DNA of 64,000 nt, from NCBI GenBank assembly GCA_039545335.1, contig BCIN01000001.1:1038604-1102603 (forward strand), written 5' to 3'. Shown in pieces: positions 17,744-42,178 of this stretch. A model generated the notes under the pieces. That model had not been told where the DNA came from. It did not search any database and worked only from the letters and a program-made list of their open reading frames with translations. A program made the translations under genes and the position numbers. Each line of letters starts with the position of its first letter. Position 1 is the stretch's first letter. This DNA is from Kondoa subrosea. Taxonomy: Eukaryota.

Positions 17744-17849
17744 AATTGCGTTATCTATAAGTGTCATGGGTCTCAGCAACAGCTACAGAATGCTTGCGAT
17801 CGATCGTCACATCGTCAGAGTGCCTCAGCTCTTTGCACCGCTCGAATGG

Positions 17850-18556: not shown

Positions 18557-18971
18557 ATAAGGAAAGAGAGAGCATGAGCCAACACAGTTAGTGTCGAGAG
18601 GAGAGACATGATGTGAGACTTCAAATTGGTTGCGAGCTGGAATGAAAGTGGGCACGTCATTCAGGGCGATCAGCAAGCATGAGTTCGTTCTGTTGTAACC
18701 GTCAGCATTAGAGTCATATGTTCAGTTCATTAGACACTTATGGACTTGGGAGCCTTCGCTTGTTTCAGTACAACCAACTGGCTCCTTGGACTACTGCCAC
18801 TCGTAACTACAGCAGCGCGGGGCCGTGGTCTCTGTCTACATCGCTCGATTGTCTGTCCACCTGTCTGACTTGCTCTTCAGAACTCTTACGTAAGATCTGT
18901 TGCATCGCAAAGTCGCAGCCTCAAGCGATCCTTACTCCGCATATTTCTACGCGCTGCAATCTTCTGCCGTC

Positions 18972-20399
18972 ATGTCAGATGATCACGAGGCTGATCCTGT
19001 TTTCCCGCTCGAGTTGCTGTTTAAGATAGCTCGGATGGCTTTGCAGAGGGAAGGTTCCTGGGAATGTAAGAGTCGGTATATCTCGTATGGTCATCTCTGG
19101 CTGATGTTTACTGACCAGGTGCTCTCGTCGCCAACCCGAAGTGGCCTACTTCGACCGTGCGAGCGGACGAATTGGACTTCATTTCGAAGCTGGTCAGGTG
19201 CGTGTCTTACTGTTCGTGTGCAAGTACTGTCTTACACACGTCTTAGAGTGGATCATGCTTTCAATCAAGAATTCTCATCCTTACTTTACCGTTACATCGG
19301 CTTCAAAGACGCAGAGCATATCTCACAGGCAATGGACAGCGCACATTTGCAATATACGAAGACACTTTACATCTGCTTAGACTGTACGGCGGAGGAGGCC
19401 TTTGAAAATGCTCTCCAGCTGATAGTCAAACTCCTTGGCAACGTTACTTCTCTTGCCTTCTTTGAAGTTCTCTTGCTCCCTACATGGCGATGCGATGACG
19501 CAGAAAAAGATCAATATCTGGAGCGACTATCGTCTGCATTGAGACCGGCATTACAGCCTCAGGTCTCTGGCGTATGGGCTACTGATCGATACTGGTCTGC
19601 ATTTGTTGATGGCAGACTGCGCCTGGATCTTTCAGACCTGCAACTGAAGGAGGGTTCCCTTGTCACCTTTCCAGATCATGTAGCACGGTCCAAGCAGATA
19701 GACATCCCTTGCGCGCTAATTATCGACGATGTTTATAAGCATTGTACGGCGAAGACTCTTCCACTCCTTCCATCAGCTCTGCGTGTCGATATTCATGAGC
19801 TGGACGGACGCTTCGCTGAGGTTCTGACCGAATTATCACCACATATCACTGACCTCCGCCTCGGTAGCGATATTCCGTATCCACTTCTGCCGTCACCGGA
19901 CACCTACATCTCCCTCAAATCCGTATCAGTACATATCAACATATCTGACGACCGTTGGACTCTCTGTCACGTCCTTCAAGATTTGTCTGGTACACTCGTC
20001 AATTTGGATCTCTATTTCGACGGCTTCCTTTTAGGTGGTTTGCTCATCTTTCAGCATATGCTTGCCTTCGAACCAGATCGCTATCTGCGACGCTTAGAAA
20101 ATCTTCGCATCCATGTAGCCATATCAGGCTGGTCTGAAGATTCGAAAGACGACAGGACCGGTATACATCTTTGTGCAGTCTGGATAGAGGATGTCGGACA
20201 CGATTCCTGGTTGTACCCGGAGACATCACCTACTTTTGGCATTCGAGAGGAAAGCAAGAGATCCAGTGATGAATGGCTCGGGTTGATGAGGGATGAGAGT
20301 ACTGGAAGCCAGTCATTACTGCCATTGAAGGAGGATGTTATTGTCAATTGGCTAGCTACTGGAAGAAGCGGGATGTCACTTGCAGCTTTACTGGCCTAG
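18972..20399 (+). CDS. F-box-like protein, probably lineage-specific; 3' end may extend to an acidic exon ending 20637
   Basis: 499-aa ORF; MSDDHEADPVFPLELLFKIARM F-box-like start; probable in-frame intron ~19066-19119; LRR-like LxxLxL segments. Confidence 0.55.
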   Translation: MSDDHEADPVFPLELLFKIARMALQREGSWECKSRYISYGHLWLMFTDQVLSSPTRSGLLRPCERTNWTSFRSWSGACLTVRVQVLSYTRLRVDHAFNQEFSSLLYRYIGFKDAEHISQAMDSAHLQYTKTLYICLDCTAEEAFENALQLIVKLLGNVTSLAFFEVLLLPTWRCDDAEKDQYLERLSSALRPALQPQVSGVWATDRYWSAFVDGRLRLDLSDLQLKEGSLVTFPDHVARSKQIDIPCALIIDDVYKHCTAKTLPLLPSALRVDIHELDGRFAEVLTELSPHITDLRLGSDIPYPLLPSPDTYISLKSVSVHINISDDRWTLCHVLQDLSGTLVNLDLYFDGFLLGGLLIFQHMLAFEPDRYLRRLENLRIHVAISGWSEDSKDDRTGIHLCAVWIEDVGHDSWLYPETSPTFGIREESKRSSDEWLGLMRDESTGSQSLLPLKEDVIVNWLATGRSGMSLAALLA

Positions 20400-20949
20400 G
20401 CATTGGTGCAACTTTGCCCTTCTCCTATGAATATCCTGTTTGTCATCTTCTTTGTGTGAACTTCGAGCGTGAGACTGACTTGCTTTGTAGACTTTCGGGC
20501 GATCAGAGTTCGCAACTAACCACTACGATGACTCAACAGATGACGAATCGTATGATGATTATGCGTATTCCAGCAACTCAGTTGGTGGTTCGAGCGATGG
20601 CTGGGAATCTGAAGTCAGTGACAGTGACAGTGACTAGAGCCCAGAGCTCGAAGTCGAAGAGAAACTCAAGCTAAAGCCAGCATCCCCTATGGGATGATGG
20701 CTTGGACATCAGCAGCGGTGTTTCAAGTTCTGCTGCTGTCCAAAATTTTAAACCTCTTCAAGCTTCGATTTATGCGTGTTCACTGTTTGTCTGTTTGGCT
20801 TGTCTGGCATGTTGCTTTAAGTCAATATGAATTTCGAGAAATACATGACAGGATAATGTACGGGCTGAAATTATGCATACTCTGTTTCTGCAACAAAAGA
20901 TACTGTGCAATATTTACTTGTACAATTAGCACNTNATCATGGATGTATA

Positions 20950-21780
20950 TTANGATTTGAACTCCTTCATGAAGTTCAGCAGTCTTTGTTCCAGCTTGCT
21001 CTTCTCTTCTTCGCTTATCTGAATTCCACTCAGTTCCGTTCGTAGTCCTGGGACATATGATCAGCGAATTTTGCACTCCTGAAGAAAGACTCACCTCTTG
21101 TAAAGGAGTCGAACGGCATAGAGAAAGTAAAGGAGCTTGTCGGAACAGTACTTTCAGTTGCTAACGGTGAACCATTCATCGAATAAGCTTGAATAGGTTC
21201 ATTCTTCTTCGGCCTACTGATCGGTCTAGGTGTACGAGAAGAAGGTAATTGCGATGAAGTAGAAGGTAAAGGTTTGATAGCGAGATTGGGTTGGAAGCGT
21301 TTGGATTTAGGTAAAGCTGGAGAAGGAGGAACAGAAGCAGTCTCCTCTGGTCGTTTCCTGCTCGAATAGGTGCGTGAGTTCGTGCACAGCAGACGTGCAC
21401 AGAGAGACATACCGCTTCTTCGGACTCTGAGCTTCCACTTGCTCCTGATCCTTCATCGCCTGCTCCTTCACTTGAACCGATACTACACCTTCAGCAGCTC
21501 GCCGAACATCTCCATCATATAGCTCAAAGAAATCCTTGACCTTCATATTACGTAATGAAGCTGGCAAGCGCTGAGCTTCCGGATCAAGTCTTCTCCGCAA
21601 GTCAGACAGCATGGACTGCATCTGTCTTTGCAATTCTTCCCTTCTTGTAGCAGTCTCCAGCTCAAAATTGGCCAAAATCGACTCGGCCTGTTTCTTGGGC
21701 AAGCCAGTAGAAGTCAAATCTTGATGCTTGGAAGGGGAAGCGGCTGGATTAGCTGCTGCTTTCTTATTCTTTGGTCTCAT
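20950..21780 (-). CDS. Borealin/Nbl1-like chromosomal passenger complex subunit, copy L (3 exons, intact)
   Basis: ILANFELETATR..LRRRL..QRLPASLRNMKVKDFFELYDGD (Borealin N-terminal pattern) and SMNGSPL; spliced frame ends FKS-TAA. Confidence 0.75.
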
Positions 21781-22149
21781 GCTGTCTCGCTTTGCCGGAT
21801 TTACAAAAGTACAGCACTGTTTTGAAAAGACCTTCGCGTGATTTTGAGACGCGAACTCAAAAGTGAGGTAAGAAGATTGATTCAATGCCTTTCCATTGCA
21901 TGATATACAAGGCTAACAAGTCTAGTGGATAAAAGCAATAGAACGAGACACAGATTAAAGATTTATGCAGCATGTATGAAGGAAAGCTCTAATTCGATAC
22001 GAAAAGTGTCCTTGTTTTGCGTCTGTTGGCCCCTTTTCCACAACAGGACGAGAGCAGAGAACCCAAAGAGGAGCTTGTACACGGTATGCTTAGTCGTAAA
22101 AAGGTATGGACAGGAGGAGTATATTGATTGAGTTGAAGATGAGCCATTT

Positions 22150-22389
22150 TTACTTTTTCGCAATGACCTGAAAATAGTCAAGTCAGTTTCCAGATTTTGG
22201 CATAGTGACATTTGAAGAATCACCTCGAACTTCCCGAAACTGCAGGGAAAGAAGCATAATCAGTATATGTGGAAGAACATTAGAAAGCGCCAAACTCACT
22301 CTTCGGAACTCATGGCCCAGATAGCTGACAATCCTTCCAGGATAGAAGCAATTGGTTGAATGACAATAGCTGGCACAAGATGGAAGATG
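22150..22389 (-). pseudogene. Promoterless duplicate of the last exons and introns of the glycosyltransferase gene
   Basis: Identical to reverse complement of 40109-40348 (IFHLVPAIVIQP..FGKFE-VIAKK*). Confidence 0.9.
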
Positions 22390-22580
22390 CAGGAAGCAGT
22401 GCGGTGTAATATAGCTAGAGGTTTAGCAAGACGATACACGGATTGCAGAATGCTACTGCTGCGTGAAATAGTGCTCCAGTGACGCGCCAGAAACCGATAT
22501 TGGCCGTAATGAGCTGACCATGCATTGCATCAAAAGGGCGATTGCTCTTCAACCGCGAGGACGTGCTGCTTTGTGCAAAG

Positions 22581-25500
22581 ATGCAGTACATCGTGCCCTC
22601 AGTCGAAGCGACATCCATCTTACACGCTCTCAAGACTGACTTTCATCAGCAAGGTAGCGATGAACTCATCGTCTGTAAAGGTGGAACTCGGCTAGAATTC
22701 CATGCTCTCGATCCTACTGGGCTGCGTGTGATCGAAGAGGTGCCAATCTATGGTACTATTCTGTCTATACGCGCTGTCAAACTGCCCGAGCGGTCTACAT
22801 CAAGTTTGGCTATCCTGCTTGCTTCCTATCGATTCTTCCTTCTGTCCTACTCAGTAGACCAAGGTCGTATCGTAACTGATGCCTCAGCCGATTTCACTGA
22901 AACTGCAGCTGCTCGGCCGGCTGATTTGCTCACTACCATCTTACTCGATCCATCTTCTCGTTTCATTGGCATACACGCTTACAATGGTCTCTTCCGTATC
23001 GTTCCTCTGCCACAACCGTCAACCTCTTCTAGCAAACGTAGGAAATCAACCACGACATTGATGGACGATGAGTTGGATCTCGATCGATCATACAACATCC
23101 GATTAGCAGACTACAATGTACACGCTCTTGTCTTGTTAAATATCAACGACATACCTACATTATGTATTCTTCATGATGATGCGAATGGCGACAAGATACT
23201 ACGTACAAGACAAATCTTGCTTGGTGAAAAAGATTTTTCGGAAGAGGAAATACAAGAGTTTAGAATAGAAGATGAAGGATCCAACATGCTGATTCCAGTC
23301 AATGATGAAGGTGTGGTGGTCATTGGTGAAGCGAGAGCGGTGTATATTCCTTTGGACGAGAAAGATGAAGCGGAGTCGCCGGCCAGAAAGGGAAAAGGCA
23401 AACGAAGGGCCTCGGAAATCAGTGTTACTTCTGCTGGAGGATCCAATTCTTCACCTTCAAACAAAATGAAGAGAAAACGCGTGGAAGAGCGACTGCCGCT
23501 TGAAGTGTACAAGGCATTTATCAAGATTGATGAAGGCGAACCGGATCGATATTTACTTGGTGATGTGCATGGTCTTCTACATAGCTTCATTGTAGTACGG
23601 AATGCAAGTAGTCAAGTCGTCGGTATGGAGGTAGCTGAGATTGGTCAAGTAAGAATATACTTCTGAACTTATAGCAAGACGCAGCTTACATCTCCCACCA
23701 GATCTCCTCTCCTGAAGCTCTGGTCTATCTATCGAACGATTTTCTGTTCATTGCTTCGCACTATGGGGATTCACAGCTTGTCAAGCTGCCGTCGGCTTCT
23801 ACTGCCTCAATGGATGTTGATTCTTCTTTCGACAATGGTATCCAAGTCATCGATAGCTTCACCAATCTAGCACCTATTTCTGATTTCTGTGTTGTCGAAT
23901 CGAAAGTTGGTGGTCCTACTCAAATTGTCACATGCTCTGGCGCGTACAATGACGGCAGTCTGAGAATTATCTCAAATGGAGTCGGCATGTCCGAATTGGC
24001 TACTCTAGATGTTCAAGGGCTGCAGAGGGTCTGGAGTCTTCGAAAATCTGGTTCAGAGTGAGTCCTTCGGATCACGCTCCTCCTAGACACACCCTGAAAT
24101 TAGGCAGATCCGATGAATTGCTGATACTATCTTTCGTTGACACTACTCAAGTACTGACATTTGCCAATGCAGAAGAAGGACCAGAAGCAGTAGAAGAACT
24201 TCCTGGCTTCGATCTCACCCTACCTACGCTGGATGCTTTCGTTTTGCCTTCGACTGGAGCCATATGTCAAATCACAAAGAAAGGTATTACTGCTTCTGAT
24301 GGTCAGAGGCTCTGGCGAGACGAGTGGAAAGAAGTCACTGTTGCTGTGCATGAAGGCGGATTTGCTGCTATCGCATCAGTTGCTGGAAAAATTGACCTGA
24401 TTAGCTTGGCAGACGGGAAGCTTGAAGTTCTCCAGTACGTCCAAGCTTGACTGATTGGCATCGGCTTATAATGGCCAACGTTTAGAACTGCTACTCTGCC
24501 GCAAGAAATCTCTTGTCTCGCGATGCACACCATACCCGGTTCAGGCAAAATCGTCATTGCTGCTGGACTATGGACAACGCAAGAAGTCGTTCTTCTTGAA
24601 AGCTCGCCCTCTGCTAGTCTGCCCATCGTTGCTACTATCCCACTCAACACCTCCTTCCTCATCCGTTCAGCCCTCATTGCGACGTTTAAAGATCGTACCA
24701 CTATGCTCTTTGTCGGTATAGGCGACGGCACTCTGGTCACATACGCTTTGCAAGCAAATGCAAATGGTATATCTCTGAATGATGGGAGCAAAAAGACAGC
24801 GGCTCTCGGCACCAAACCTATCGTTCTGGCTTCATTCAATATCAATGATGACGTAAGCGTCTTTGTCAGCAGTGACAGACCCACTGTTGTCAGCCGGACG
24901 AATGGACGAATGAATTTCGCCAGTATGGCATTAAGTGTAGGTTTTGGGCTCGCTTGCTGAATGCAGGTGCTTAGAGTTCTGAATTTTTAGGGAATTACCG
25001 CCGTTACATCATTTAATGCTGCAGCCTACGAAGATAGTCTGGTCATGGCTTCTGCGACGGAACTACGAATTGGTCGGATAAATGAAGTTCAAAAAGTACA
25101 AATCAAAACCATCAAACTGGAAGAACATCAGCCTCGACGTATTGCACATGCTCCGGGACTTTCTGCCTACGGAGTGGTCTGCCTGAAAGAAACTTTCAAT
25201 CATTCTACCGGGGTAGAAGAACGGACGAGTTCGTTCAAGATAATCGACGAAGAGTCTTTCGAAGGTGAACTCTGTCAATATCAGACCACAAACAGGTAAA
25301 GCTGAACTTCTTTGGTCAGTTCTACTTGATTTCGATTTCGAAGAGGAAGAACAAGGACTTTCAGTTTCGGTGCTGACAGTCGGAGATGATGGAGCAGAAA
25401 GTTTTGTCGTTGGTGCTGCTACTATCCTGCAGAGCGAGATACAAGCAAGAAGAGGTCGAGTTCTGCTATGGCAACAACAAGACACGGGCTTCGAACAAAT

Positions 25501-26494
25501 AGCCGAATACGATGCAAAAGGCTCACCCTATGCACTTGCTCAACTACCGCACGGTCGGTTGGCTGTTGCTATTAATGCTCAGGTAAGCGTCTGCGAGATA
25601 ACTTTAGAGGGTGTGTAGCTAACGATCGCTCCAGGTGCATATTCTCGAGAAAACACAAGATCACACTTTCGAACTGCTTGCAAAATGGGGCGGAACCTTT
25701 ATTGCCACCAGTCTCGTTACATCTCATGATCAGCTGATTGTCGGCGATGCTCTTCGCTCTGTCATTGTTCTTAAAATATCTGAAGATGGGCGCAAACTCA
25801 TTGAAATCGCTCGAGAGAACACGGCCTATGGAATCATGAGCGTCCAGGCGCTGCCAAACGATAGCTATATCGCAGCAGATCAAGATTTGAATCTATTCAC
25901 TATGACTCAGAGCGTAGTTGCACCGGACAGCAAAGATCTGGTACTCAAACCTGCCGGTCTCTTCCATTTGGGCGAAATGGTCAATCGAATCCTGGTCGGC
26001 TCCCTGCTACCCAAATTCGCCCAATCTACAGAAGATGTCAAGGGTCAACTCATTTATGCTACTTCGAGTGGAACTTTGGGCGTTATCGTGGATCTCAAAC
26101 CAGAATCTGGTCAATTGCTTTATGAATTGCAGAGAAATATGCGTCGTGTAATTAAAGGGGTTGGAGAAATCGAACAGCAGGAGTAAGTGCTTTGCTTATT
26201 CTACCGTTGATATGCATTGACACTCGATTTAGCTGGCGAAGGTTTCAATCCGAGTTCAGATCATTGGAGTCCGTCGCTTTCGTGGACGGTAGCTATGTCG
26301 AGAGATTTGCGGACCTCACGCCTGAAGAGGTCGAAGCTGTTTTGGCTGGTGGTAGTGAAGGTACGTGCTTTGTGCTTCTGATCGCGGAAGATAATTCACT
26401 AAATTGCCCTCTTTTGGCGACCCTAGCTGAACGTATCGCTGTACCTAAGGAAGCTGTACTGAGTCTCTTGGAAGAATGCGAAAGATTGCATTGA
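22581..26494 (+). CDS. DDB1: DNA damage-binding protein 1 (CUL4 adaptor)
   Basis: PIYGTI, RYLLGD, SHYGDSQLV, FTNLAPISDF, IVTCSGAYNDGSLRI, SDRPTV, VGDALRS, FHLGEMVN, FVDG. Confidence 0.93.
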
Positions 26495-27097
26495 TTCTTC
26501 ATAGAATCTTTTGTATTGATTTGTCAAAATAGCATGTAATTCACATTGGAAGATGACTTCTGCTTCTGTCCTAGCATACTTCTCATAGCTATCTGTATAA
26601 CAGCTCTGCCGTGCAGGTGCAGCATGGCTTTGACGAAGAGCGAGGATACCAAGCAAGCCTTTGTCTCGTCCAACAACCAGAAAATCAGGAGGCCTGGGCA
26701 TCAGCCGTGACCCAGTGACTAGAGCTTTTTCAGCACTCTTCTCACGATACAATCATCTTCCAGGCCTTTGTCTGTAGTCTAACCAGAAATCCAACTGGGT
26801 GTTCTCGCTTGAGCTTGTTATTAAGGTGCAACCGTAACTTTAACCATTCGGATTCTGCTGCTGCTAGAATCCACCTCATATCACTGCACAATTCGCGCCT
26901 TCCGCAAGCAACAGTTTGGTGTCGTGGCAGTAGGAGAAGGGAACGCGACTGCAACATTGCGCATTTTTAGTTGGAGGGTGTTCAGAGCTTTCAAGGAGTA
27001 AACGACTCTCGTTGGACGTGTCTGCACGAAATTGCTGCAAAGTAAGCAGCACCACTGGTCCGCCTATTGACGACTATTGAATCATAGAGATCTCCAG

Positions 27098-30000
27098 ATG
27101 AATGCCTTCGACCAGAATCCCACACAGACACAGCAAAGCCAGCAGCCTGAAGCGAGCACATCTTATCAAAGCCGCGAAAGACCGCCGACTCCTGCGAGGA
27201 AACACTATTACAACGCGTCTGCTGACTCTTCTCCTTCTTCCCTTCAATATGCTGCAGTATCGCCCGATGCCAGCTTCGAGCAACAAGACTATGCCGAACA
27301 ATCAGATACTAGCTCCCTTCGCTCTTCTGCTTCTTCTTCCTCTTCTCGAGCTCAGCAGCAACAGAACAAGCAATCCATATTCGATCCGATCATGCATGCT
27401 GTCTCGCTGCTGAAGAGAGCTACGGAAGCCAACAGAGTCTCGCACTTCCAGCCTGCAACTGCCTGCGTTATCTCCTCTATAAGATCGGCTCTTTCTGTTA
27501 CCGATTGTCTGGCCAAGGAATCTCAAGTGCTCAAGATGTTCCCTGTTCTCGCTAAAGAGCGCAGGCAAATACTTTCAGCATTAGCAGTCCTGGTCGCGCA
27601 AGCTAGGAAAGCATCAGGCTTTACCGGTCAAGAGGAGGAACGCTTTCGTGAAGCTGCTGTTTTGTCCGATCTTGCAGAAGGCGTGTCTGAACATGTGCAG
27701 CGGTTCAGAAGCGTGCTAGATCAATGCGGATTACTGGAGGAAGATAGAGTTATGTCTCCTGCGCCCACTGAAGACCCTTCCTTCTCATTTTCAAGGTCAA
27801 CTTCTCCTCACGAAAACAAGTTACATAAAGCAAAAAGTCTTGGAGACATATCAAGTCGCAACCGCAATAAATCGCTTCCTCGGGAACCTTTCCCCGAACA
27901 TCTTGCTCTGCACTCACGAAATCAAGTACCTCCTATACCTTCGACTTCTTCCGGCTTTCCTTGGAGCCATCAAGATAGGCAACCTCCCGCTCGTTCACCG
28001 ACGTGGACGAATGTCACCGAAATGGATACGACAGCTATCACGCATGCAGCAACCGTTACTCACGATGCTCTTCTTTCAACAGTGGCAGCTTTCATAGGTC
28101 ATGTACATGCTCATTCGCGCTCAAGTCATTCTTCAAGTCATGCACACCTCATTGATATGACAAGAGAAGCATTGGAAACCCTACGAAAGATCTTCGTCTT
28201 GGTTGAATCAGTTTGCCAACACCGATATTCTGAAGCTCAATCCGCTTCGCCGAAACTAGCTGCTCTGGACAAGACAAGGGAAGCTCTATATGATGCTACT
28301 GCTACTTTGGTTACCGAAGTTCAACGTGCAACAAGTCCCCCAAGCGAACTTGAGATGGCGCAAGCGAGTGAAGAAGAGGAGCATCAGGATTTGCTACAAG
28401 CAGCAACGGTTGTACTGCGGACGGAGAACGAGTGCTCAGAAGCTCTACAACGATGTCTACGCAGAAGAGATACCAGGCTTGAAGTCTATCAATTGGTTGG
28501 TCGACTTTCTTCACCTCCCCCTCAAACACCTGGTCCGGCTTCGCGAGGCGGCCTCAATCCATTAGAACACGACTTTCTTTTGCGACCCAGACTAACACAA
28601 ACGGTGCTACAACAGACAACTGCCCGATTGCAGCCTGTTCCAGAAAGTCGACGAGCTGCTTCTGAGCCATCTTCAGCTGTTCCGGGTGGTCTTCTGGCAA
28701 GGCGTGGCATCACAACTCCGACCCCGCTGGTGCTTCGTGATCGAAGTTCAAGCATGTCATCTGTCTCCGCCAGTACAGTAACTAGTTTGCAGCCACGGAG
28801 CTCGAGTGATGCTAATTCAGTCGGACGCTCTTGCTCACCTGCGCCTTACTCTGGTGCACACAGCGAAAGTATGAGCAGGCAAAGTTCAGCTCGATCAACA
28901 AGTTCAGCAGCAACTTCCCTATTCTCTCCAGTTTCAGAACACAGCGCCGATACTTCGCCTCGCTCTTCTGTGACTGATGAGCAAAATAATCTGTCCACAG
29001 AAGATGTCATGGCCCTAGCCGCGTCACGATCGTATCAGCCTCGCGAAATCAGTTTCAATTCCGATGGACAAGTCGTAGCTGGAACGATTCGCAGCATAGT
29101 GGAACGAATGACTCTACCTGATACAACTACCGATCCAGTCTTTGCGGCCACTTTCTTCCTTACCTTTCGAATGTTCTCTTCTCCTGCGGAAATCACGGCT
29201 GGTTTACTAGCACGCTTCAATATGCCTTCTCCTGCCAACCTGCCAGAAGATTGTGAAGCATTCAAGCTTTGGCGCGACACCAAGCTTATTCCTGTTCGAC
29301 TCAGGGTCTTCAACATATTCAAAACCTGGCTGGAAACGCATTGGCATCCGCTAACTGACAGTGTTATCTTGGAACCGCTGCTAGAATTCACGCGCAGAAC
29401 TCTCAGCCAGACAATGTCTTCGGCTTCTGCTCGCTTGTCTGACCTGATATCACGCAGATCCACTCGCGACTACAACTCTTCATACAGTTCACGCGCAATG
29501 GTCAGAGCACATTCTGGCAATCGCTCAAGATCTGGCAAACCTGCTGTGGATGGCGTACCTCTGCCTAGTTCGCCAATGGTCTCCGGACCAAACTCAACGC
29601 AACACTTCCCTTCTGCTCCTCCGCCAAATCCTAACATGACCAAGAATCTTCTAACTCTGCTTCGCACTGCACCTTTTTCTACTATCTCCATTCTCGAATT
29701 TGACGCATTAGAGTTGGCTCGACAATTCACCATAATGGAATCCAGGATCTACTGCGCTATCCAACCTTCCGAACTCCTCGGATTGGGCAAGAAGCCGGGG
29801 TGCAATACAGCTTCTAATGTCAAGGCCATGAGTTCTCTCAGTACTCGAATCACTGGATGGATCAGTGAGCTGATACTGGACGAGCAAGACGCCCGAAGGC
29901 GAACACATATGCTCAAATATTTCGTCAAATTGGCCGATGTGAGTCTTCGCTCGTTGATTAAAGGTGGTGAACCTGACATTCTCCCAGAAATGCTACTCTC

Positions 30001-30580
30001 TTCGCAACTATAATACTCTTGTGGCAGTTTTAGCTGCGTTGAACTCATCGACAATCGCTCGACTGAAAAAGACTTGGGATGGTCTCGCACCAAAATATCA
30101 TGTCATCTTGGAGAATGTCCGCAAAGCAACAGAGCACAGTCGAAATTATGCAGAATATCGAAGTCAACTACGAACTGCTCAGCCTCCAGCTCTACCCTTC
30201 TTGGGCTTGTATTTGACCGACCTGACTTTCAGCTTCGAAGGCAATCCGTCGCACCGTCCTTCGCCTATGGACTCTTCGCTGCGGTTGATCAACTTTGATC
30301 GATATGTAGTATGTTGCGTTCATCTATAAACCTTACACGCGACTAAGAGAGATAACGCAGAAAATGACAAAGATAGTCAACGATATGCAACGCTTCCAAG
30401 TTCCGTACAATTTCTTTGAAGTGCCCGAGATGCAAGTTTGGCTGAATCAATCACTTCAGAGCGTTCAGGTAAGCTCGGTCACTTCGTTCCTAAATTCATC
30501 TCATTCCTGTTTCACAGTCTGGAGGAGACGTAGATCTGTTGTATAGACGATCGCTAGTATTAGAGCCCAGGGCTCAGTAA
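27098..30580 (+). CDS. Ras guanine-nucleotide exchange factor (REM + CDC25 domain); upstream intron ~27042-27097, so the start may lie further 5'
   Basis: FFLTFRMF, VRLRVFNIFKTWLE, LELARQFTIME, LRNYN..ALNSSTIARLKKTW, RNYAEYR, LPFLGLYLTDLTF..GNP, INFD. Confidence 0.92.
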
Positions 30581-30825
30581 TCTCTTCTCCTTTTGGGTGT
30601 ACAGTAGGTAGAGATCACGATTGTTAAGAAGCTTGTTGTAACATTGTTCAGTCATTGGCATACAAGTGCAGGATTTCGATTACATGTATACATCTATCAG
30701 CAGCCTATGTCCGTCTCTTACAACTCTCGGTTCCTGCCTGGCGGATCAGCGAAAGGATCTTGCTCTACTTTCCAACTCCTTGCCAAGGCAGGAGGAAATG
30801 TTGCCAGCGCAAAATCGCTTGTGCT

Positions 30826-33144
30826 TCATGTATTTCCTGATCTTGAGGGGGATTGAGGAACAGCCTTCTGTCGCGGTCGCCAGCGACATAGACCAGCGAG
30901 TCGCTGTTTAAATGATCCCTGCCTTTCTTGGAAATACTTGTCTTCTTCGGCGGTTGCAGAAATAGCTCCGATCAAGCCACACACGAGCACGATCGAGTAG
31001 AGGAGAAGAAATGCTAGTGCGATCCATCTTTGCTGTCTGAGAATCTTCTCGTAACCGTCGTAAATTCTGTTGACCAAAGATTCACCAGCTGATTCTTCTG
31101 GCGATCCCACACTCTGGATTGAATTGGCGAAAGCGCTTGTATCATCCGGAGAGAGATGTAAGATGTCGTCAGACAAACGAGGAAGTGAGAGATGCGCATG
31201 TTCATTGAGGAAAGTCAAGGCTTTGGTCGCAGCCTCCACCTTGCTGCCAATAATACAGGCAACCACTCCTTGTACTATTGTGTTGAGCGGTGTAGAGCCA
31301 AAGATGTTCGAGAGTTCGGTCGTAAATTCGGTATAGAAGGCGTTTATTGTAGTATTCAAGATCGTGGTCGAAGAATTGACGAATCCGAAGACATTCTGAT
31401 CAAGTTGTGAGCTAAGTCCAAGTAAGCAACGAAAGAAGTCTTACGGTGTTCACGTCCAATTCGAAGGCAGCAAGATGAGCATTTGTTGCAGCAGAATACT
31501 GCGAGCTAGAGTTTCCGATGGCAGTGTTGAGTTGCTGGAGGATGGATGATTGAACATCCGCCAATCCTGCATTGGCAGTGTCAACGCCATGAGCTCTAGC
31601 AACGCCCAATGCTGCGAATTGCAGTTGTACAACTAGCAGAGCGACCAGTCCAGCTGTGAAAGTAGTGTCAGCGTAACGATCTCTCACGATAGCACGGCGT
31701 ACCGAGAAGAAGGAGCAAAGCTGGAGGATGTGTTATATATGCCATAAACCAGATCGCTCTTGTTTGAAGGGGATCAGACGATCGGAATCTGGGTAAGATG
31801 TGTAGAAGTTTGTGAAGATATGAGAAAGCCAGAGGTTGCTGATTGTATGTCAAGAAGGCCATCAGAGAGGTAGTTGAAGGAGTCTGCTTATATTCGTAAC
31901 TTGACTTCTCGTTCGGCGAACGACTGGAAGCCATGTCCTTGGTTTGCTCGATGTTATCAATCAAAGACTTGTATCGGATTCTTTCCAGGAGGCAAGAGCC
32001 AGCGATGACAAGGAATAGACCAACACCGACCAGAATAATTGCAATTCGGAGAGTCTTGAGAAAACCTTCGCCAACATCATCAACAAAGCTGGTATCCAGT
32101 TCGTTGCAGAAGGAGACGGTTTGACGAGCCGGAACTGGCAGGAGAGATGGATCCATGGTCGCGTTGGCCATAGAAGACTATCTAGCGCTTAGCGTGGTAG
32201 TCGGATTAGGCGCACTTGAACTTACATTTACTTGTAGCCTGACCTGTTCGAATGGAATAGAGATCACAGCTGCCAATCTGTCCTTCATCTCGTCCATAGC
32301 TATAGGCGGGATCGATAAGCTAAAAGCCACACCAGATGTCGTTCACGCACTGGGCATTGATGAATTCAAGCTAGTCAAAGCAGAAGTAACAGAATCAGGA
32401 AGAGTCAGATTGCTCAGGGCCCCAAGATCTGGCATTGGCAATGTTGGTCTAGATCGGTGCTGGTCAGCGGGCTTTCACAAGTTCCTCTGTATGCACTCAC
32501 GGATCAATGTTCACGCCAGGAATCTTGTTGATGGTTTCCAATGCATCCGAAAGAACTTTGTTGATATCTGTTACGCTACTTTGAATGGTGCTGGCCAGCG
32601 ATGCCGCTGTAGATTCGACCAAGTCTCCAACTAGAGAGAAATCAATCAGTCCAAGCCCAGCCCAAAGAAAGCAAGTCACATACGTGCTTCACTTGCATTT
32701 ATAGCTAGTGTCAATCCCGATCGAACAGCTAGATCCGCCAGACATAGAAAGAGAGATCGATAAAGATCAATAACGAAGATAAGGATTGCTTCTATTGCTT
32801 GTATTGAAATATCAATCATGCTCGCCATGCCTTGAACCATCCTAACAAGAAGGTCATCAGTATTTGTTAAACAGGCAGAATGCTGGAGCTTACGCAGTTG
32901 CTGACTGAGCAGTGATTCTATTGGTTGCAGTTGCCGAATAGTATGGCATGCTGGCAAGAACTGAAGCAGAGCGTTCAGCAGACAAGCAAGAAGCCGCCAG
33001 CTGAAGTTTGGCAGATGTGACTGCTCCATCTATTGAGGACATGGCAGCCAGCAGACCAGCTACGACTATGCTGAGTGGTATAATGATTTGAGACACCCAG
33101 ACCAGAGAGCAGCGGGCTCTCAATCCCAGGTAGGGCTGCAGCAT
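30826..33144 (-). CDS. PRM1: Plasma-membrane fusion protein Prm1 (mating/cell fusion)
   Basis: PYLGLRARCSLVW, SCLSAERSASVLASMPYY, FVIDLYRSLFLC, SFC, WFMAYITHPPAL, FGSTPL..VVACIIGSKV..ALTFLNEHAHLSLPRL. Confidence 0.9.
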
Positions 33145-34098
33145 TTCAGGTGATTGAAAAGAGGAGAAACAACGGAAGTTATCAAGTGTCTGACAGAGGA
33201 GGAAACAAGAGGGAAGATACAGAGATCAGAACGCACACCGAGCGCAGCACACAATAAGTCAAACACAGGTCTTTTGTCTAAAAAGAACTTTGGAATCTGA
33301 AGGGACAGCAAGCGAATCTGTACCAGTGATTGATAGACTGCTGCATCGCAGAAGAGTGCGAAGTAGATGAGACTGCAATGACAAGCTGGGTCGCTTCCTT
33401 TCGTCGACCGGATTTCGTCAATCGATGTTTGCGCCTTGTTTGCGCTTTTCTTCTTGAACTATATACTGTGACACAGCTTCCTGCAGACCTTCGCGAAAGT
33501 TTTCGGCTGTATCTTTGCACCCAATAGGTAGTTGCCTCAAAAGAGCTTCTGTATCGCTCTGTAATCCTTCGACCGGAGTGGAGATGGGGCCTTTGTTTCT
33601 AGGCTGTCTAGATTACTACTGGCCCGTTATACAGCCTTCCATCTCTTCTCATCATGTCGAGCTTTGACCAGCTCTTGACCAGATTCTCTTTCGCGTAATT
33701 TCGGATTGGTTGCCTAGTCAGTCTTATAGTCTGATACCTCCTGCAAATTGCTCTTCTCTCTCGTGTTGCGCGAAGTACTGTAAGGCGTGTTTAGAGATAT
33801 GCGTCTTTGAAGCTTTTCCGAATAATATTTGAGATCGTGCTTTGCGATTTGAATATGTTGGACATCATACAGCAGCTCAATTATCCTTACGAAGAAACTA
33901 CAGGACGCTGGAACATGAAGGACAGATGACGTCTTCTCTCCGTATTGTTGTATTCTGGACAGAAAAGGTCTTCTACCAAGCTTAAAAACCGATTGTGGGT
34001 CTTGTTCATTGCCTTTCCTCACTCTATCACTCATCACTACTCTTGAATTCAACGCAAGGAAACAATCATATCTCTTTTTCAACTCAACTAAGTCAACA

Positions 34099-34647
34099 AT
34101 GAAAGCTTCTATCCTCTGCCTTGCTGCTGTTGTCGGTCTAGCCCAGGCGAATATCCGCATCAAATCATACACCAACGTAGACTGTCAAGGAGCGGATATG
34201 GGCGTCATTGACATTAGTTAGCAAGTGCTCTAATTCTGCCCAAACTTCCCTTGATTGATCTATATATTAACAGCCTGGCTCCTCGCATGGAGAACGAGCA
34301 GCATGTCGACTTTGGACCCAATGCTCAATCTTATTGGATTGAAGCGGATGCATGTAAGTCTTGATCATTCCTTCAAGAAGTTGGAATTTCTGTGTGGCTG
34401 ACCTCTTGATCTCCTTCTTCTCGGCTTTAGATGAACAGCTGTACACGAGACCTTATGGTGGAGGCTGCGCTGGTTTTACGCCCAATCAACTTGCCCCAGT
34501 TTGCGTCACAGTTCTGCCAGGAGGCGGCCAACCTTACAACGGGTAAGTCGCCTCTTCGGTCTTGTACATCAAGGTTCAAACTGACCCTGTTTGGCATACA
34601 GGTGCAGTGGATCCATTGGTAGCGCTGTATATGGTCGATATTTTTAA
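34099..34647 (+). CDS. Small secreted Cys-containing protein (~119 aa, 4 exons; first intron probably GC-AG)
   Basis: Signal peptide MKASILCLAAVVGLAQA; exons 34099-34220, 34274-34353, 34431-34542, 34602-34647 give ..GGGCAGFTPNQLAPVCVTV..YNGCSGSIGSAVYGRYF*. Confidence 0.65.
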
Positions 34648-35710
34648 TTGGGATTTTTCGTTTTTGTATGTACAACGATATTATATTTTTCTCTGGTACT
34701 CTCATATATAGCTCTGGGTTCCTTTTCTTCTGCTTCTTTGCTGCTCTGGCCTGCCTCTTAAAAAGTGTACGGCCGTGAGATCCTGTCGTTACTTGCGAGA
34801 ATCTGTGCGAAAATTCACTCTTATGCGGCTAAACCTTGGCAAAACTCGATATGCTGCGTTAAGTGTACCATCAGCTTGGAGCAACCCTAGCAGGTGCAAG
34901 AGCTTCAGAAAATCACATTCGTGACAGGAACTTCCCGTAGTCATGATCTCATCTTCTGTTTTTCTTTTTTCGCTTATGTCTCTCGTGCAAAGTGTACAGC
35001 CGCTGAGCAGTTTTTCACAAGGGATTCATTGGAATGCATACAGCAGTGCTCTGACGTACAATTTATCTAGGTAAAGAGAGGGATCGAGACAGCCTGAGGG
35101 AAAAGAAGCTCGTTTCTATCGATTATATCATTCGATTGAAGCCGAGCAAAGGCTGAGCGTAGCGAAAAAGCTCCTTGCTCTTGACGACCTTTAATTTTCC
35201 CACAGCTCTTCAGCATTGGACACGACGCTCTCTGCCTTGACAGTCGCGCGTCTAAATTCAACACAACTGATATTTTTCAACGGACATATCGCATCGTTTT
35301 GACCGCCTCCTCTTTGGCTGCGGCGCATGGTTAATATACCAAGCCCATTCAAGTCAAATAATATTAGGCAGTCTGAAGAGGAACAACTCGCTGTAAGTTA
35401 TCGTGCCACTTCAAAGCTTTGTTTTGCACTTTCCCTCTTCTTTCGACCTACCACTCCGTCTGCCTGTGTCCACCAGGCCTAAACATCGTACGGCGCACTC
35501 AGCCTACACACCAGATAGCATTCTGTTTTGTTCATAAGCTTGGCGCAGCAAAGTAGCGTGCTCAAAGACCAACTTTACATCGATACTCATTTTTTTCGCT
35601 TCCCTTGCCTACAGGAACCACGACCACGTTACGCAACAGTCAATAGCAATTCAAGCTCTTCTTCAGTAACGGCCGCGCCTGCTGAGCCAAGGGCTGCGCC
35701 TATTCACGCC

Positions 35711-38700
35711 ATGTTTAGCTCATCCCGTCCTCAGGACAATCAAGCTCCTGTCGACTACGATTACAGGCAATCAGCTATATCTGCCGCCTCAGACTACGGC
35801 CCAGACAACCGCGACTCGAGATACGACGATGTGGCTTCAGAAGGCTACGATAGTCGTCGCGAATCGTACTTAGACCCTTCCCATGGCCAATTACAACCCC
35901 TAACCCATTCTGGCGGCTCATCTCGTATTGAAGACGATCGCAACTCAAACGAATCTGGTTCCGGCTCAAATAGCTCGGGCACAAAAGTCAACACTCCTCT
36001 TTCAGAAAGTCGTTCGCCTTCCTCTTATCGCGCCGGCTCAAAACCTTACAACCAAGGAGCCTTGCGACACGAAGGCAGTGACATGTCTGGTCAGGCTTGG
36101 CATGGTCCATCTTCCGATTCTTCTCACGAACAAGTAGGAGGCACTGGCCTCTATCAATCTCGAGGATATTCGGACTCGTCAGGCTACGTTGATCAACCAA
36201 TGTACCATCCTTCCTCTCCTTCATCAGCGCAATCTCATGGTTCGCCTGCTTTTGATACGCGCTACAGAGATAATTCTTACTCTGGTTCGGGTCTCAATTC
36301 AGCTCGCGCTTCCACTATTGGCACCGATCATATTCCATCGATGCCTTACAACTCTTCTCGCACAGCTCTCAACCATGAATGGCAAAATTCCGCAGATATG
36401 GATGGTATCGCTGTTGCACCAGGAAAAGAACGTTATGGTCCCGGGAGACATGATCGAATGGACTCTTACGGCACAGAGAAAGATGGTCCAGCTACCTATG
36501 TTCCTATACCCCCTTCTTCACCAGCAATGAACAGCTCAATGAATGAGAAAATGGGCGCTCCTGCTGGAATGAAGCCAGACGGATCAAGGCTACCGGAGCC
36601 AGCAGTGGTATTGAGCAGGGCGAACAGACTGGCATGGATTGATGGTTTGAGAGGGTTGGCTAGTATCGTCATCTTCACTCATCATTTCGCCGATTTGACC
36701 TGGGCAAGCACGCACCCTCGAACATTAGAATGGGGCTATTATCAATCCTTCGTCAGGTCAGTAGAGTGAAGCATCTGCGAATACAACTGTTTGCTAATGA
36801 TGATCATGACAGAAACGGTCAACTCGCAGTTGCCATGTATTTCTTGCTTGGCGGTCGAGTTCTTGCGCACTCTTTCCTTCGTTCAGCTTATGTCAAACCA
36901 AAAGCACCCAAAGACTCTCACGGCGATCCAATTCCTGGAGCTGTTGCACCAAAGTGGACCGGGCCAAAATGGCTTTCTCTTTCCTCTTCTCTCTTCCGTC
37001 GGTCTATTCGTCTCGCTCTGCCAGCTGTTGTCATTGGCTTCCTCCAATGGCAATTATCACTTGCGGATTACTTCGAAGACGCTAAGCAAGCTCAAGCGAT
37101 TTTGGAAACCGATGCCCTTTGGACACCAAATTGGCATTACATCGGCGGCTTTACCAACTTCTTACGCTTTGTCATTGATCTTTGTGAGCTTTTTTGCGCT
37201 AACTAATGCAGCAAGACTGATACTTCGCATAGTCACGAATTCCAATCACAAGTACATGCTTTTCGTTGGTTCCGCTCTATGGACCACCTTCGATCAATTT
37301 TGGGGAAGTATCATCACCTACATTGTGGCAGCCTTGATGGCTCCACTTGCACCAAAAGGACGTTACTTGTCATACTTCTGCATGTGAGTTCGCTTGCATC
37401 AGAAAAGGAAATATTCGGCGCTAATCTTTATTTAGCCTGGCTTCACTTTGGTGGATCCAATCTCCCAATTTCCTTTACATCTTCGGTCTCCTCATGGCTG
37501 ATCTACACGCTGCCGGTTACGTTCGTAAATTACAAGATCACTGGAAGCCAACGATGTTGGTCGAATGCGGTTTCATGGCAGTTGCTTTGACCTGCATTGT
37601 TGGAGGTCGAAACATCCAATTTGGTGCAGATGATCTTTTCGGTCGCTTTACCGTCTTTGAAGGCAAGTACTCTTTCGATCCCAGACAAGCCTGGCCGCAA
37701 TACATGAACTTCACCACTTTTATTCCGCCGTTATGTATTCTTGTCTGGGTGGAAGTCAGTCATGCCATGCAATGGTTCGCCTCGTGGGGTCTCTTTGTTT
37801 GGATTGGCAAAGTGTAAGCTTTCTTTAAGCCTGTCTTCGCGAACTTTACTAAAGCGTCGATTAGTTCTTACGGTTTCTACTTGATGCAATTCATCACCCT
37901 ATACTCCATTATGCCTCCTATGATCATTGCCTTGAACGACGGCCGTGGTTATTGGGACATGGTTGTACCAGCATACATCGTCGCGCTGATGTTCAACTTT
38001 TTCATCGCCTGGGTCGCCTATCACTTGCTCGACAGAACAGGTCTAAAGCTTGGCAAATGGGTTTGGGACGGTCTCTTCGTCACCAAGCCAAAGAATGCTG
38101 CTGCTTTACCTCTCAAGTCTGTCAAGGCTTTCGTTCACATGGCTACCACTCTACCTGGAGATACCGTCAAATGGGTGGCTAATGGAAGCAAGAATGCCTT
38201 AACAAAGACAAGAACTGCTTGGTGGTATTTATTCCACTGGCGCACACCCGTGAGTGATATTGTTCTAACTTTGTCGTCCTATTTCTAATTCCCACAATCT
38301 GTAGACCACCCGACCTGCTATTCCTGAACCAACAGATCCTGAAGTCCTCGCTCAGCTCAACTCCACTCGCTGGACAAGTGACATGTCGCAAGACAGAGAA
38401 GCGATGCACACTGCCAGACTCTTGAAGTTCCAGCAATGGACTTGGGTTCCACATCTATTCTTGATTCCAGGCTTGACGTTGGTATGTCAGAGTCTCCAAT
38501 ACTTACTTTCCTGTTCGCTCATGCTGTCTCAGGTGTGGACGTGGTTCCACCCAACAGGTAGATGGACATACGATGCGCTGACATTCTCGACACTTTGGCG
38601 GTTCATTTGGATCTTGAGTTTGCCAAATTGGTGAGTCTTTACATTCGGCCTGGAGTCATATTAAGCTAAGTGTTGTCCTTCCCAGCATGTTCGCCTGGCT

Positions 38701-40348
38701 AGGATTTTGCACACCGGATTGGGCGCATAGCAAGGAACACATGGACAAGAAGCCGGTCTGCGTAAGTCCCATTGCTTTCAGAGTGATGCCACGGCTCATG
38801 TGCTGTTATAGCGAGAACACATTCGCAACTTCTTCGTCTTGCTTGTCACCAAGGGATCAAACGAATCTGCTGTTCGAAGAGGTTACAACAAGCTTTTACC
38901 GCTCGAGAAATACCATCCTGCTTTGAAAGTCATTGTTTTGACTGATGAGCCATATGTGAGCGGCAGTAACTATTTTATGAACACTTCGCTGATTTTCTCG
39001 TAGGTCTATCCTGATCTGAAAAACATTGTCTGCCCCAAAAACTACAAGTCGCCTCTTGGTAAGGCCAAATACAAGGCTCGCGCTCTCGATTACTTCCGTT
39101 ACCACGTATCGCTCGGCAGGTATATTATGTTGTTCAGTTTCAAATGATTCCATCTGATCTATCTTCTCAGCTTTGATTGGATTCTGCATATGGACGAGGA
39201 GTCGACTTGCGATGGTGAAACTTTGAGAAGATGTATGGATTTCATTCGCTACACTCCTCATCACTTCGGGCAAGGTATTATTATGTATAATGGTGAAGGT
39301 TACTGTAAGTACTTTCTCGCTGCCGATTTCATCCGCTTACAACGTGCGAAGGGGACAACTGGCTTTTCACTGTTGCTGATGGTATTCGTGTTGGTGATGA
39401 TCTGGCTCGTTTTCATCTGCAGAACACCGTCTTCAAACGACCTATCTTTGGCGTACACGGCTCATTCTTGATGACTAACGGAGAGATGGAAAACGAGTGC
39501 ACTTGGGATTTCGGATCTTTGGCGGAAGATTTCGAATTCTCGCAAGACGCTTGGAGAAGAGGTTTCACTTGCGGCCGTATCCACGGTATCGTCAGAGAAC
39601 AATCGCCTCAAACCGTCCGAGATTTCCTGAAGCAACGTAGACGTTGGTTCATGGGCATCAGAGATATCAAGGGCATGTACGGCCTGCCAAATTTGGCCAT
39701 CAACTTGTGGATCGTTGGGTGAGTAGATCATTTGTCTACATAGGGCTTGACTGATCATTTTGCGTCAAGTGTATTCACTCTCGGAGCAACAGTCATCAAT
39801 TTCCCCTTCGTCGCTTTCGATCAGTCTTTGACACCTGTAGGTCTTGTATTAAGCTTAGCAATTCCACGACTTACCTCGTTTTAGCTATGGGTCGCCATTA
39901 TTGCCAATTTCTGCTGTAAGGCGCTCTTCATGTTCTGCTTTGCTTTTGCCTAACTATGTCCTTTGCTGCGGACAGTCATGACCTTCTATGTACTCTACCT
40001 ATGGGGATTGTTCATTCAAGAACTCGATTACGGCATGCGTAAGTCGACTTTGACCAAAGTAGCCATTTGCTTATCCTCTTCACCCGATTCTATAGCTTGG
40101 TATAAGATCATCTTCCATCTTGTGCCAGCTATTGTCATTCAACCAATTGCTTCTATCCTGGAAGGATTGTCAGCTATCTGGGCCATGAGTTCCGAAGAGT
40201 GAGTTTGGCGCTTTCTAATGTTCTTCCACATATACTGATTATGCTTCTTTCCCTGCAGTTTCGGGAAGTTCGAGGTGATTCTTCAAATGTCACTATGCCA
40301 AAATCTGGAAACTGACTTGACTATTTTCAGGTCATTGCGAAAAAGTAA
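35711..40348 (+). CDS. Fusion of acyltransferase-3-like membrane domain and GT2 glycosyltransferase (egghead/BRE-3-like)
   Basis: WIDGLRGLASIVIFTHH and SYGFYL (acyltransferase 3); YKARALDYFR, LHMDEES, GQGII, VHGSFL, SLAEDFEF, EQSP..DFLKQRRRW (GT2); reading appears continuous across GT-AG introns. Confidence 0.8.
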
Positions 40349-40639
40349 AAATGGCTCATCTTCAACTCAATCAATATACTCCTCCTGTCCATACCTTTTT
40401 ACGACTAAGCATACCGTGTACAAGCTCCTCTTTGGGTTCTCTGCTCTCGTCCTGTTGTGGAAAAGGGGCCAACAGACGCAAAACAAGGACACTTTTCGTA
40501 TCGAATTAGAGCTTTCCTTCATACATGCTGCATAAATCTTTAATCTGTGTCTCGTTCTATTGCTTTTATCCACTAGACTTGTTAGCCTTGTATATCATGC
40601 AATAGAAGGCATTGAATCAATCTTCTTACCTCGCTTGGG

Positions 40640-40662
40640 TTCGCGTCCCAAAATCACGCGAA
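40640..40662. promoter_or_regulatory. Inverted pair of MCB/SCB-like CGCG boxes upstream of borealin (also in left copy ~21834-21856)
   Basis: TTCGCGT-cccaaaatc-ACGCGAA about 50 bp before the ATG; conserved in both arms despite nearby substitutions. Confidence 0.4.
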
Positions 40663-40714
40663 GGTCTTTTCAAAACAGTGCTGTACTTTTGTAATTACGG
40701 CAAAGCGAGACAGC

Positions 40715-41548
40715 ATGGGACCAAAGAACAAGAAAGCAGCAGCTAATCCAGCCGCGTCCCCTTCCAAGCATCAAGATTTGACTTCTACTGGCTTGCCCAA
40801 GAAACAGGCCGAGTCGATTTTGGCCAATTTTGAGCTGGAGACTGCTACAAGAAGGGAAGAGTTGCAAAGACAGATGCAGTCCATGCTGTCTGACTTGCGA
40901 AGAAGACTTGATTCGGAAGCTCAGCGCTTGCCAGCTTCATTACGTAATATGAAGGTTAAGGATTTCTTTGAGCTGTATGATGGAGATGTTCGGCGAGCCG
41001 CTGAAGGTGTAGTATCGGTTCAAGTGAAGGAGCAGGCGATGAAGGATCAGGAGCAAGTGGAAGCTCAGAGTCCGAAGAAGCGGTATGTCTCTGTGTGCTC
41101 GTCTGCTAAGCTGCTGTGCATTAAGCACTTATGCAAGCAGGAAACGACCAGCGGAATCTGCTTCTGTTCCTCCTTCTCCAGCTTTACCTAAATCCAAACG
41201 CTTCCAACCCAATCTCCCTATCAAACCGTTACCTTCCACTTCATCGCTATTACCTTCTTCTCGTACACCTGGACCGATTCGTAGGCCGAAGAAGAATGAA
41301 CCTATTCAAGCTTATTCAATGAATGGTTCACCACTTGCGACCGAAAGTACTGTTCCGACAAGCTCCTTTACTTTCTCTATGCCGTTCGACTCCTTTGCGA
41401 GAGGTGAGTCTTTCTTCAGGAGTGCAAAATAAGCTGATCATATGTCCCAGGACTACGAACGGAACTGAGTGGAATTCAGATAAGCGAAGAAGAGAAGAGC
41501 AAGCTGGAACAAAGACTGCTGAACTTCATGAAGGAGTTCAAATCNTAA
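40715..41548 (+). CDS. Borealin/Nbl1-like subunit, copy R (3 exons, intact)
   Basis: Same motifs as copy L; introns 41083-41140 and ~41404-41450. Confidence 0.75.
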
Positions 41549-42178
41549 TATACATCCATGATNANGTGCTAATTGTACAAGTAAATATTGCACAGTATCT
41601 TTTGTTGCAGAAACAGAGTATGCATAATTTCAGCCCGTACATTATCCTGTCATGTATTTCTCGAAATTCATATTGACTTAAAGCAACATGCCAGACAAGC
41701 CAAATATACACATACATCGAAGCTTGATCAATCTGAGCGGCTTTGGACGTGATACACAAGGAGAAGAGACTTCTCATTTCTAGTCGAGGTTGAGCCATAG
41801 ATCACAGAATTCGCAGCGCATAACAAACGGAGGTGGGCACAGCCGCGCCTCGATAATAGATTTCTGAGCAGATACAGGAACACAGCAGTCTTGGACACGA
41901 CAGTACGCGTTAAAGCCATTGGTTCGAGTTTGCCAGTCATGCATGAAATTTCGCTAAGGCAGTGATTCTCTTGCAAGACGGAGTGCGCAGGCGGTCCGAT
42001 ACACTTGAGGTTAGGCTCAGGCATAGCTTGACAGGTATATCTACACGACATGACCGTTTGACTCCAAGCAAATCAAGATTTATTTCGAAGGGTTGTCCTG
42101 TTCTAGCAACTCGATACTCACAGCTCAGTCGCAGTCAGGAGCTGCCAGACTTGTATCTCCATCTATTGTCCAGCAGCC

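Follow-up and report, generated by a model that had tools for sequence, protein, structure and literature searches.

Two Borealin genes in a patchily identical inverted repeat around a 17.7-kb block of Kondoa subrosea: probably an old segmental duplication and not a regulated switch

A 64,000-nt stretch of the Kondoa subrosea genome (C1:1,038,604-1,102,603, here called the window) contains two inverted repeat arms around a single-copy core of 17,719 nt (22390-40108) that includes the gene for PRM1, a protein of plasma-membrane fusion. A sequence-only reading had proposed this block as an invertible flip/flop cassette, possibly with a role in mating. The assembly comprises 18.9 Mb in 27 contigs; C1 (4.23 Mb), C2, C3, C4, C6 and C11 are labels for contigs of this assembly. 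Self-BLAST paired 40109-41710 with the minus strand of 20788-22389 over 1605 columns, with 96.5% identity, 50 mismatches and 4 gap openings. The main part of the left arm covers 20758-22389 (minus strand) and has this identity to 40109-41710. By self-alignment, the right arm covers 40109-41727 (plus strand) and is the likely source copy. The inverted repeat is real, and its length of 1.6 kb was confirmed by self-BLAST. It is not the exact reverse complement that had been described: a global alignment of 20794-22389 with 40109-41704 has 53 differing columns, and the unit was once longer, with a 79% identical piece at 17260-17742. A search of the whole assembly found arm DNA at these two places only.

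Each arm carries a complete, outward-pointing gene for Borealin/Nbl1, which the sequence-only reading had missed. Borealin is a subunit of the chromosomal passenger complex and, to our knowledge, is normally single-copy in fungi. Both gene models are intact, with three exons and 242 codons. Copy L lies at 20950-21780 on the minus strand (exons 21780-21413, 21357-21095 and 21047-20950; PF10444, E 5e-14) and copy R at 40715-41548 on the plus strand (exons 40715-41082, 41141-41403 and 41451-41548; PF10444, E 7e-14). These are the only Borealin matches in the genome. The two proteins differ in 9 residues, and the genes in 17 synonymous and 10 non-synonymous changes (dS 0.107, dN 0.018). With a dN/dS of 0.17 (Fisher p 9e-6), the codon comparison indicates that both copies are under purifying selection, and they appear to have stayed functional.

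The arms differ at their ends. On the right, the last exons of a GT2 glycosyltransferase (GT) gene extend into the arm, Borealin follows, and the promoter and gene of TRM6/GCD10 come directly after it. TRM6 is intact (42179-43760, plus strand, ends inferred; PF04189, E 2e-24). All three genes are whole in the right copy, whereas the left copy has stumps at both ends. The inner stump is an orphan GT 3' end (22389-22150). The outer stump, a second and older segment of the left arm missing from the sequence-only reading, is a decayed inverted TRM6 promoter with the first 15 codons (17260-17742, minus strand). It is 79% identical to its source at 41726-42223 (plus strand, by self-alignment), and its frame runs for 39 codons before a stop. 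The TRM6 piece and the main left arm are linked by a decayed rim at 20758-20793 (0 of 1000 shuffles score as high). The duplicated unit spans the GT tail, Borealin and the TRM6 head and is at least 2.1 kb long. Homology was found neither inward of 22389, where 456 of 1000 shuffles scored at least as high, nor outward of the TRM6 stump, where 793 of 1000 did.

The old left arm is split by a left-only segment of 3.0 kb (17743-20757), while positions 41726/41727 are contiguous on the right. The segment may be an insertion on the left or a deletion on the right. Its DNA is single-copy apart from one 43-nt match. It encodes an F-box-like orphan with an open frame of 501 codons (18894-20399, plus strand), which has no Pfam match, an Atlas feature score of 0.96 to basidiomycete F-box-like clusters and one distant paralog on C6. 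Within the segment, 17865-17903 (77%) and 17983-18027 (89%) are collinear inverted matches to C1:1264315-1264485, about 208 kb downstream. Another inversion, which would have carried in the F-box piece, possibly left them as its scar. Just past the TRM6 stump lies a single-copy orphan open frame of 274 codons (16065-16886, minus strand) with no Pfam match, no Atlas match and no paralog. The relic TRM6 promoter may drive it.

Identity along the main arms is patchy. From the inside outward, 495 identical nt are followed by about 825 nt with about 50 differences (~94%) and by 272 identical nt. The inner tract (21895-22389, minus strand, and 40109-40603) has no difference and contains, as had been noted before, the last exons of the GT gene, its stop (40346-40348) and its 3' region; two introns and intergenic DNA are also included. 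On the left, the same tract comprises the GT stump, the terminator and intergenic DNA. The outer tract (20794-21065, minus strand, and 41433-41704) comprises part of Borealin intron 2, exon 3 and the 3' UTR, and its sole exception to identity is 3 N at mirror positions. Together with the TRM6 relic, the identity zones along one duplicated unit are 79%, 100%, ~94% and 100%, so the divergence is not even. When 52 differences were placed at random, 0 of 100,000 placements left a gap of at least 499 nt; the observed gap is 495. If the outer 272 nt had diverged at the rate of the middle zone, three or fewer differences would be expected with a probability of 2e-5. Selection on protein does not explain the identity of the inner tract, part of which is intronic (two introns) or intergenic. 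The identical 495- and 272-nt patches point to non-allelic gene conversion between the arms, the usual explanation of such a mosaic, on evidence from one genome.

A 495-nt tract that is simply young would also result from two successive staggered-break inversions with reused breakpoints. The first would have duplicated Borealin and the TRM6 head, and a recent second one the GT tail, restoring the orientation. Both staggered breaks and the reuse of breakpoints have been described (PMC1885836). The identical tract is nearly all GT tail and terminator and has a sharp inner edge; divergence starts about 110 nt upstream of where Borealin begins. The short inverted match between 17983-18027 and a site some 208 kb distant is a hint of more scars. 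Two observations speak against this course of events: the homology is in register across 40603/40604, which requires homologous exchange there, and the outer 272-nt tract requires conversion anyway. A history of two inversions is therefore considered unlikely.

Copy number was assessed by the depth of contigs from two read sets (X1 and X2) of one sample, which were placed on 20960-40108. In X1, the arm bins had depths of 266 and 291 versus 140.5 for the core, and in X2, 91 and 99 versus 53.7. Each arm allele was a bubble near single-copy depth in both read sets, and the core was a single 17,779-nt contig at 1x depth without variants. Arms at about twofold depth, alleles at about onefold depth and a variant-free core make a haplotype artefact unlikely. 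The contig builder had fused some known differences into single nodes; depth was hence used on the inner tract. Known differences predict 1.86x for this tract, and 1.99x and 1.80x were observed. Hidden differences would lower the prediction to 1.63x for 5, 1.46x for 10 and 1.14x for 30. A control node predicted at 1.52x had 1.47x and 1.32x. The inner tract is identical or nearly so, as the depth allows at most about one hidden difference. For the mirrored 3 N, X2 gave 1.81x (expected 1.80x without and 1.64x with copy differences) and X1 gave 2.07x (1.88x and 1.70x). The depth leans against the N being differences between the copies.

An assembly artefact, with a haplotype copy as one arm or an identity that stems from repeat collapse, could draw on the mirrored N, on the merged differences and on the core being a single contig between merged arm nodes, which leaves its orientation unphased. 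The depths of arms, alleles and core agree in both read sets against it, the depth of the inner node rules out many hidden differences, and no assembler could generate a relic at 79% identity. An artefact is highly improbable. A transposon with terminal inverted repeats or a site-specific invertible element was rejected as well: the 206 window ORFs scanned have no Pfam match to a transposase or recombinase, no PF00589 recombinase was found in the genome, and the arms are two-copy and not dispersed.

The locus is probably an old local inverted segmental duplication homogenised by conversion. Passive, occasional inversion is possible within this explanation, not a regulated switch, and PRM1 would be a passenger. 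A piece from the last GT exons through Borealin into the first TRM6 codons would have been copied in reverse about 18 kb away and placed upstream of DDB1. The origin may have been a mis-repaired break, either a staggered-break inversion that was later undone or an insertion by template switching. After a single staggered-break event, the intact GT gene would be found on the left; the present state therefore needs a re-inversion or a plain inverted insertion. The continuity of the GT gene suggests that the core is now in the ancestral orientation. The 3-kb F-box segment would then have parted the TRM6 piece, which decayed to 79%, while non-allelic conversion between the arms would have made the identical 495- and 272-nt patches. 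Rare crossovers during conversion would invert the 17.7-kb core harmlessly.

The harmlessness follows from the layout. After a crossover in the inner tract, the GT gene stays whole, the first differing base lies 495 nt downstream of the junction, and the 495 nt upstream of DDB1 are the same. The earlier claim that such a crossover flips the block and leaves every gene intact agrees with this gene reading. Since a flip leaves the first 495 nt at both inner ends unchanged, no local effect on promoters or terminators is expected; only a long-range silent domain could turn the flip into a switch.

Several points weigh against a segmental duplication of this kind. No outgroup or second strain was found, so that its direction, age and ancestral order were judged by the side on which the genes are broken. 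Of 307 pattern matches to DDB1 exon 1 in a metagenome scan, none was confirmed, and no look-alike windows were found in other genomes. A 600-kb sample (200 kb of window flanks plus 200 kb each at arbitrary places of C2 and C3) contains several direct local duplications, and an inversion-linked origin is thus not required. X1 and X2 are possibly the source of the assembly itself and are not independent. The inner identity stops abruptly at 22389 with no decayed homology beyond, and a recent separate duplication would also yield such a sharp edge.

The closest known case is the flip/flop (FF) region on Saccharomyces chromosome XIV. There, a 24-kb block is proposed to re-invert when conversion ends in crossover, and its orientation was stable over ~53,800 mitoses and 950 meioses (PMC9731477). 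The two loci share unrelated single-copy genes flanked by inverted repeats that carry genes and that were homogenised by non-allelic gene conversion, in Kondoa probably so; an inversion damages no gene in either, and a phenotype of the orientation is not expected (PMC9731477). The yeast arms are 4 kb long, nearly identical, carry sporulation genes and lie near the centromere, and both orientations have been shown (PMC9731477). In contrast, the arms here are 1.6 kb long and patchy at 96.5% identity, carry Borealin and gene stumps, and are known in one orientation. The locus appears FF-like in anatomy and homogenisation and may belong to this class.

Identical patches within older, diverged arms imply recombination between them and make an occasional orientation polymorphism plausible from the alignment. 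In a stronger form, compatible with the segmental duplication, the polymorphism would be recurrent as in Saccharomyces. Both orientations would segregate among strains, selection on two Borealin genes would keep the arms, and conversion would keep their likeness. Purifying selection on both Borealin copies and the gene-safe flip site favour this reading, as does the yeast layout, which re-inverts repeatedly in evolution yet is stable over the mitoses counted (PMC9731477). The perfect tract of 495 nt is short in comparison with the 4-kb near-identical arms in yeast, and the middle 825 nt with about 50 differing positions indicate that exchange is infrequent. A recurrent polymorphism is possible but less likely than not.

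Staggered-break duplicates offer a second comparison. Inverted duplicates of this origin occur at 17 of 29 Drosophila inversions, with lengths up to ~1.9 kb and a mean identity of ~88% (Ranz 2007; PMC1885836). Like the Kondoa arms, they are non-repetitive, inverted and two-copy, have partial genes at their ends and are comparable in size and identity (PMC1885836). Unlike those duplicates, which mostly contain decaying genes, the arms here retain Borealin under selection and appear converted. The Drosophila duplicates are tied to inversions (PMC1885836), whereas the present one is known from one arrangement.

The core begins with DDB1 (22581-26500, plus strand, end approximate), identified by the Pfam domains of RSE1/DDB1/CPSF1 and by 39 of 39 PDB matches being DDB1. 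A Ras GEF follows (27071-30600, plus strand, ends approximate; PF00618 and PF00617). PRM1 is located at 30826-33460 on the minus strand (5' end approximate). A HMMER search found 421 relatives at E<=0.001; among 10 looked-up matches, 4 are named PRM1 and the other 6 are hypothetical or unnamed. The best named PRM1 relatives are 33-40% identical and come from Microbotryomycetes and agarics, as would suit a basidiomycete, perhaps one of the Pucciniomycotina. Word-index searches with Borealin exon 1 and with a PRM1 exon found no homologs. A small multi-exon gene with a signal-peptide-like start (34099-34623, plus strand), read from the letters, has no Pfam match. The last gene is the GT2 gene (35711-40348, plus strand, start inferred). 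Pfam, PDB and HMMER relatives bore out the earlier assignment of DDB1, Ras GEF and PRM1 to the core. For the proposed fusion of an acyltransferase with GT2, the GT2 part is firm (PF13632, E 4e-20), but the acyltransferase match is weak (PF01757, E 0.008). The N-terminal acyltransferase-3-like region makes the gene a candidate fusion gene. No tRNA was found in the window.

The presence of PRM1 had raised the question of a flip/flop switch. Ogataea polymorpha (FF1) and Komagataella phaffii (FF2) switch mating type in this way (PMC4238957, PMC6692504). Like FF1, the Kondoa locus has a kb-scale inverted repeat with a truncated gene copy, and the FF1 region measures 18-19 kb (PMC4238957). The FF1 repeats of 2,049 bp are identical, unlike the arms here at 96.5% (PMC4238957). 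Of the features that mark FF1 and FF2, the kb-scale inverted repeat is present in Kondoa (1.6 kb, 96.5%, two-copy by depth), while no mating-type determinants were found within the block or at its ends. Such switches also have a repression site, a centromere or telomere, beside one end, and an inducible inversion that yields both orientations in a clonal culture.

A regulated switch of mating type or mating competence through PRM1 would have a layout in its favour: the sizes of arms and core resemble O. polymorpha with its identical 2,049-bp repeats and about 18 kb, and one arm is formed by a truncated gene copy in both (PMC4238957). PRM1 also has a role in cell fusion (PMC5720818). The determinants lie elsewhere. 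A divergent homeodomain (HD) pair is on C11 and C1 has no homeodomain match; of the four loci with STE3 matches, two belong to C4 and the others to C1, where they are 1.3 and 1.6 Mb distant from the window. PRM1 sits in the middle of the core, at least 6.6 kb from either arm, and its induction in Cryptococcus is seen in a and alpha strains alike (PMC6772093). In the available part of a 2025 survey on the MAT loci of Cryptococcus and Kwoniella, the only mention of PRM1 is in the reference list (PMC12510652). PRM1 is a fusion effector, not a mating-type determinant. The arms are just 96.5% alike, and no PF00589 recombinase was found in the genome, although O. polymorpha requires none; serine recombinases were outside the genome-wide search. 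The locus does not appear to be subtelomeric. It lies about 1.04 Mb from the contig end, and the flanks (100 kb on each side, 20 stretches) have a normal GC content of 45-47% with open reading frames (ORFs) throughout, except for two stretches interrupted by N. One assembly gap is found 20-30 kb to the left of the left arm, and the centromere was not located.

The earlier statement that the window has no recognisable homeodomain, STE3, pheromone or recombinase gene agrees with the scans. Among 206 of the 210 window ORFs of at least 80 aa (4 with N were omitted), none matched HD, STE3, transposase or recombinase profiles, and a single-exon scan found no CAAX ORF in 16000-44000. With the HD pair on C11, STE3 at least 1.3 Mb away, no CAAX ORF and no local regulatory change upon inversion, the proposed mating-type or regulated inversion switch is not supported. 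Nothing at the locus points to one, the key test for determinants failed, and such a switch is very improbable. To find a true mating-type flip/flop in a basidiomycete would be of major importance, and the evidence here is against it. No basidiomycete flip/flop region is described in the titles and abstract openings searched, most subscription journals being outside the search.

The scans also located candidate mating-type genes. On C11:52835-54192, divergent homeodomain and KN-homeobox matches are 1.1 kb apart and probably represent the HD mating-type locus. STE3-like receptor loci are at C1:2428923, C1:2745580, C4:51017 and C4:1439612, four in one apparently haploid genome.

Other genes of the window were assigned by Pfam: a neutral trehalase (12600-15900, minus strand), an MMR_HSR1 GTPase (47503-48402, minus strand), an MBOAT protein (49119-50738, plus strand) and a Mad3/Bub1 kinase (59322-63542, plus strand). 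The kinase gene lies 18 kb from Borealin copy R, a proximity probably due to chance. A tandem duplication of a 1.3-1.6-kb multi-exon gene is found at 52476-55379; the copies are 89% identical with a 300-nt patch at 99%, and no Pfam match was obtained among the scanned ORFs.

Inverted brackets are not confined to this locus. Three further pairs were examined, and all were found: one of 524 nt with 92.6% identity and a longest identical run of 311 nt, one of 936 nt (89.4%, 73 nt) and one of 524 nt (95.6%, 269 nt). They bracket housekeeping genes. The 600-kb sample contains 4 more local inverted pairs of at least ~0.8 kb, which are 75-92% identical, 1.2-78 kb apart and have identical runs of at most 98 nt. 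A genome-wide search with three of these four showed two pairs with two copies only and one with an additional short adjacent tandem piece. Cross-contig matches of at least 100 nt were absent from the sample. Extrapolation gives 35-325 inverted pairs per genome (Poisson; centre 127), about one per 150 kb. Such inverted brackets are common in this genome, and local duplication occurred in both orientations. Among the 8 pairs measured, the longest perfect tract is the one of this locus with 495 nt, followed by 311 nt.

Individual pairs differ in their setting. An inverted pair at C1:1114991-1117963 and 1144996-1146768 (~80%, 27.6 kb apart) begins 12 kb past the window end and includes tandem pieces and an assembly gap. 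On C3, the two-copy inverted duplications 576376-577561 with 589245-590432 and 561097-562057 with 639724-640681 are nested. A further one is located at C2:659591-660410 and 661655-662473.

As a single locus, the Borealin block is one more homogenised inverted duplication. It is of modest interest for its layered history, with zones of 79%, 94% and 100% in one unit, and for the retention of two selected Borealin copies. Its perfect tract, the longest measured, makes it the best place to ask whether such brackets flip in nature. A more speculative and rather doubtful extension is that the genome has tens to hundreds of gene-safe brackets, of which the best homogenised, including the Borealin block, re-invert repeatedly and segregate in populations. 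If true, this would be a genome-wide flip/flop architecture of many small recombination-suppressed blocks, here including PRM1, whose brackets selection on duplicates like Borealin would keep in place.

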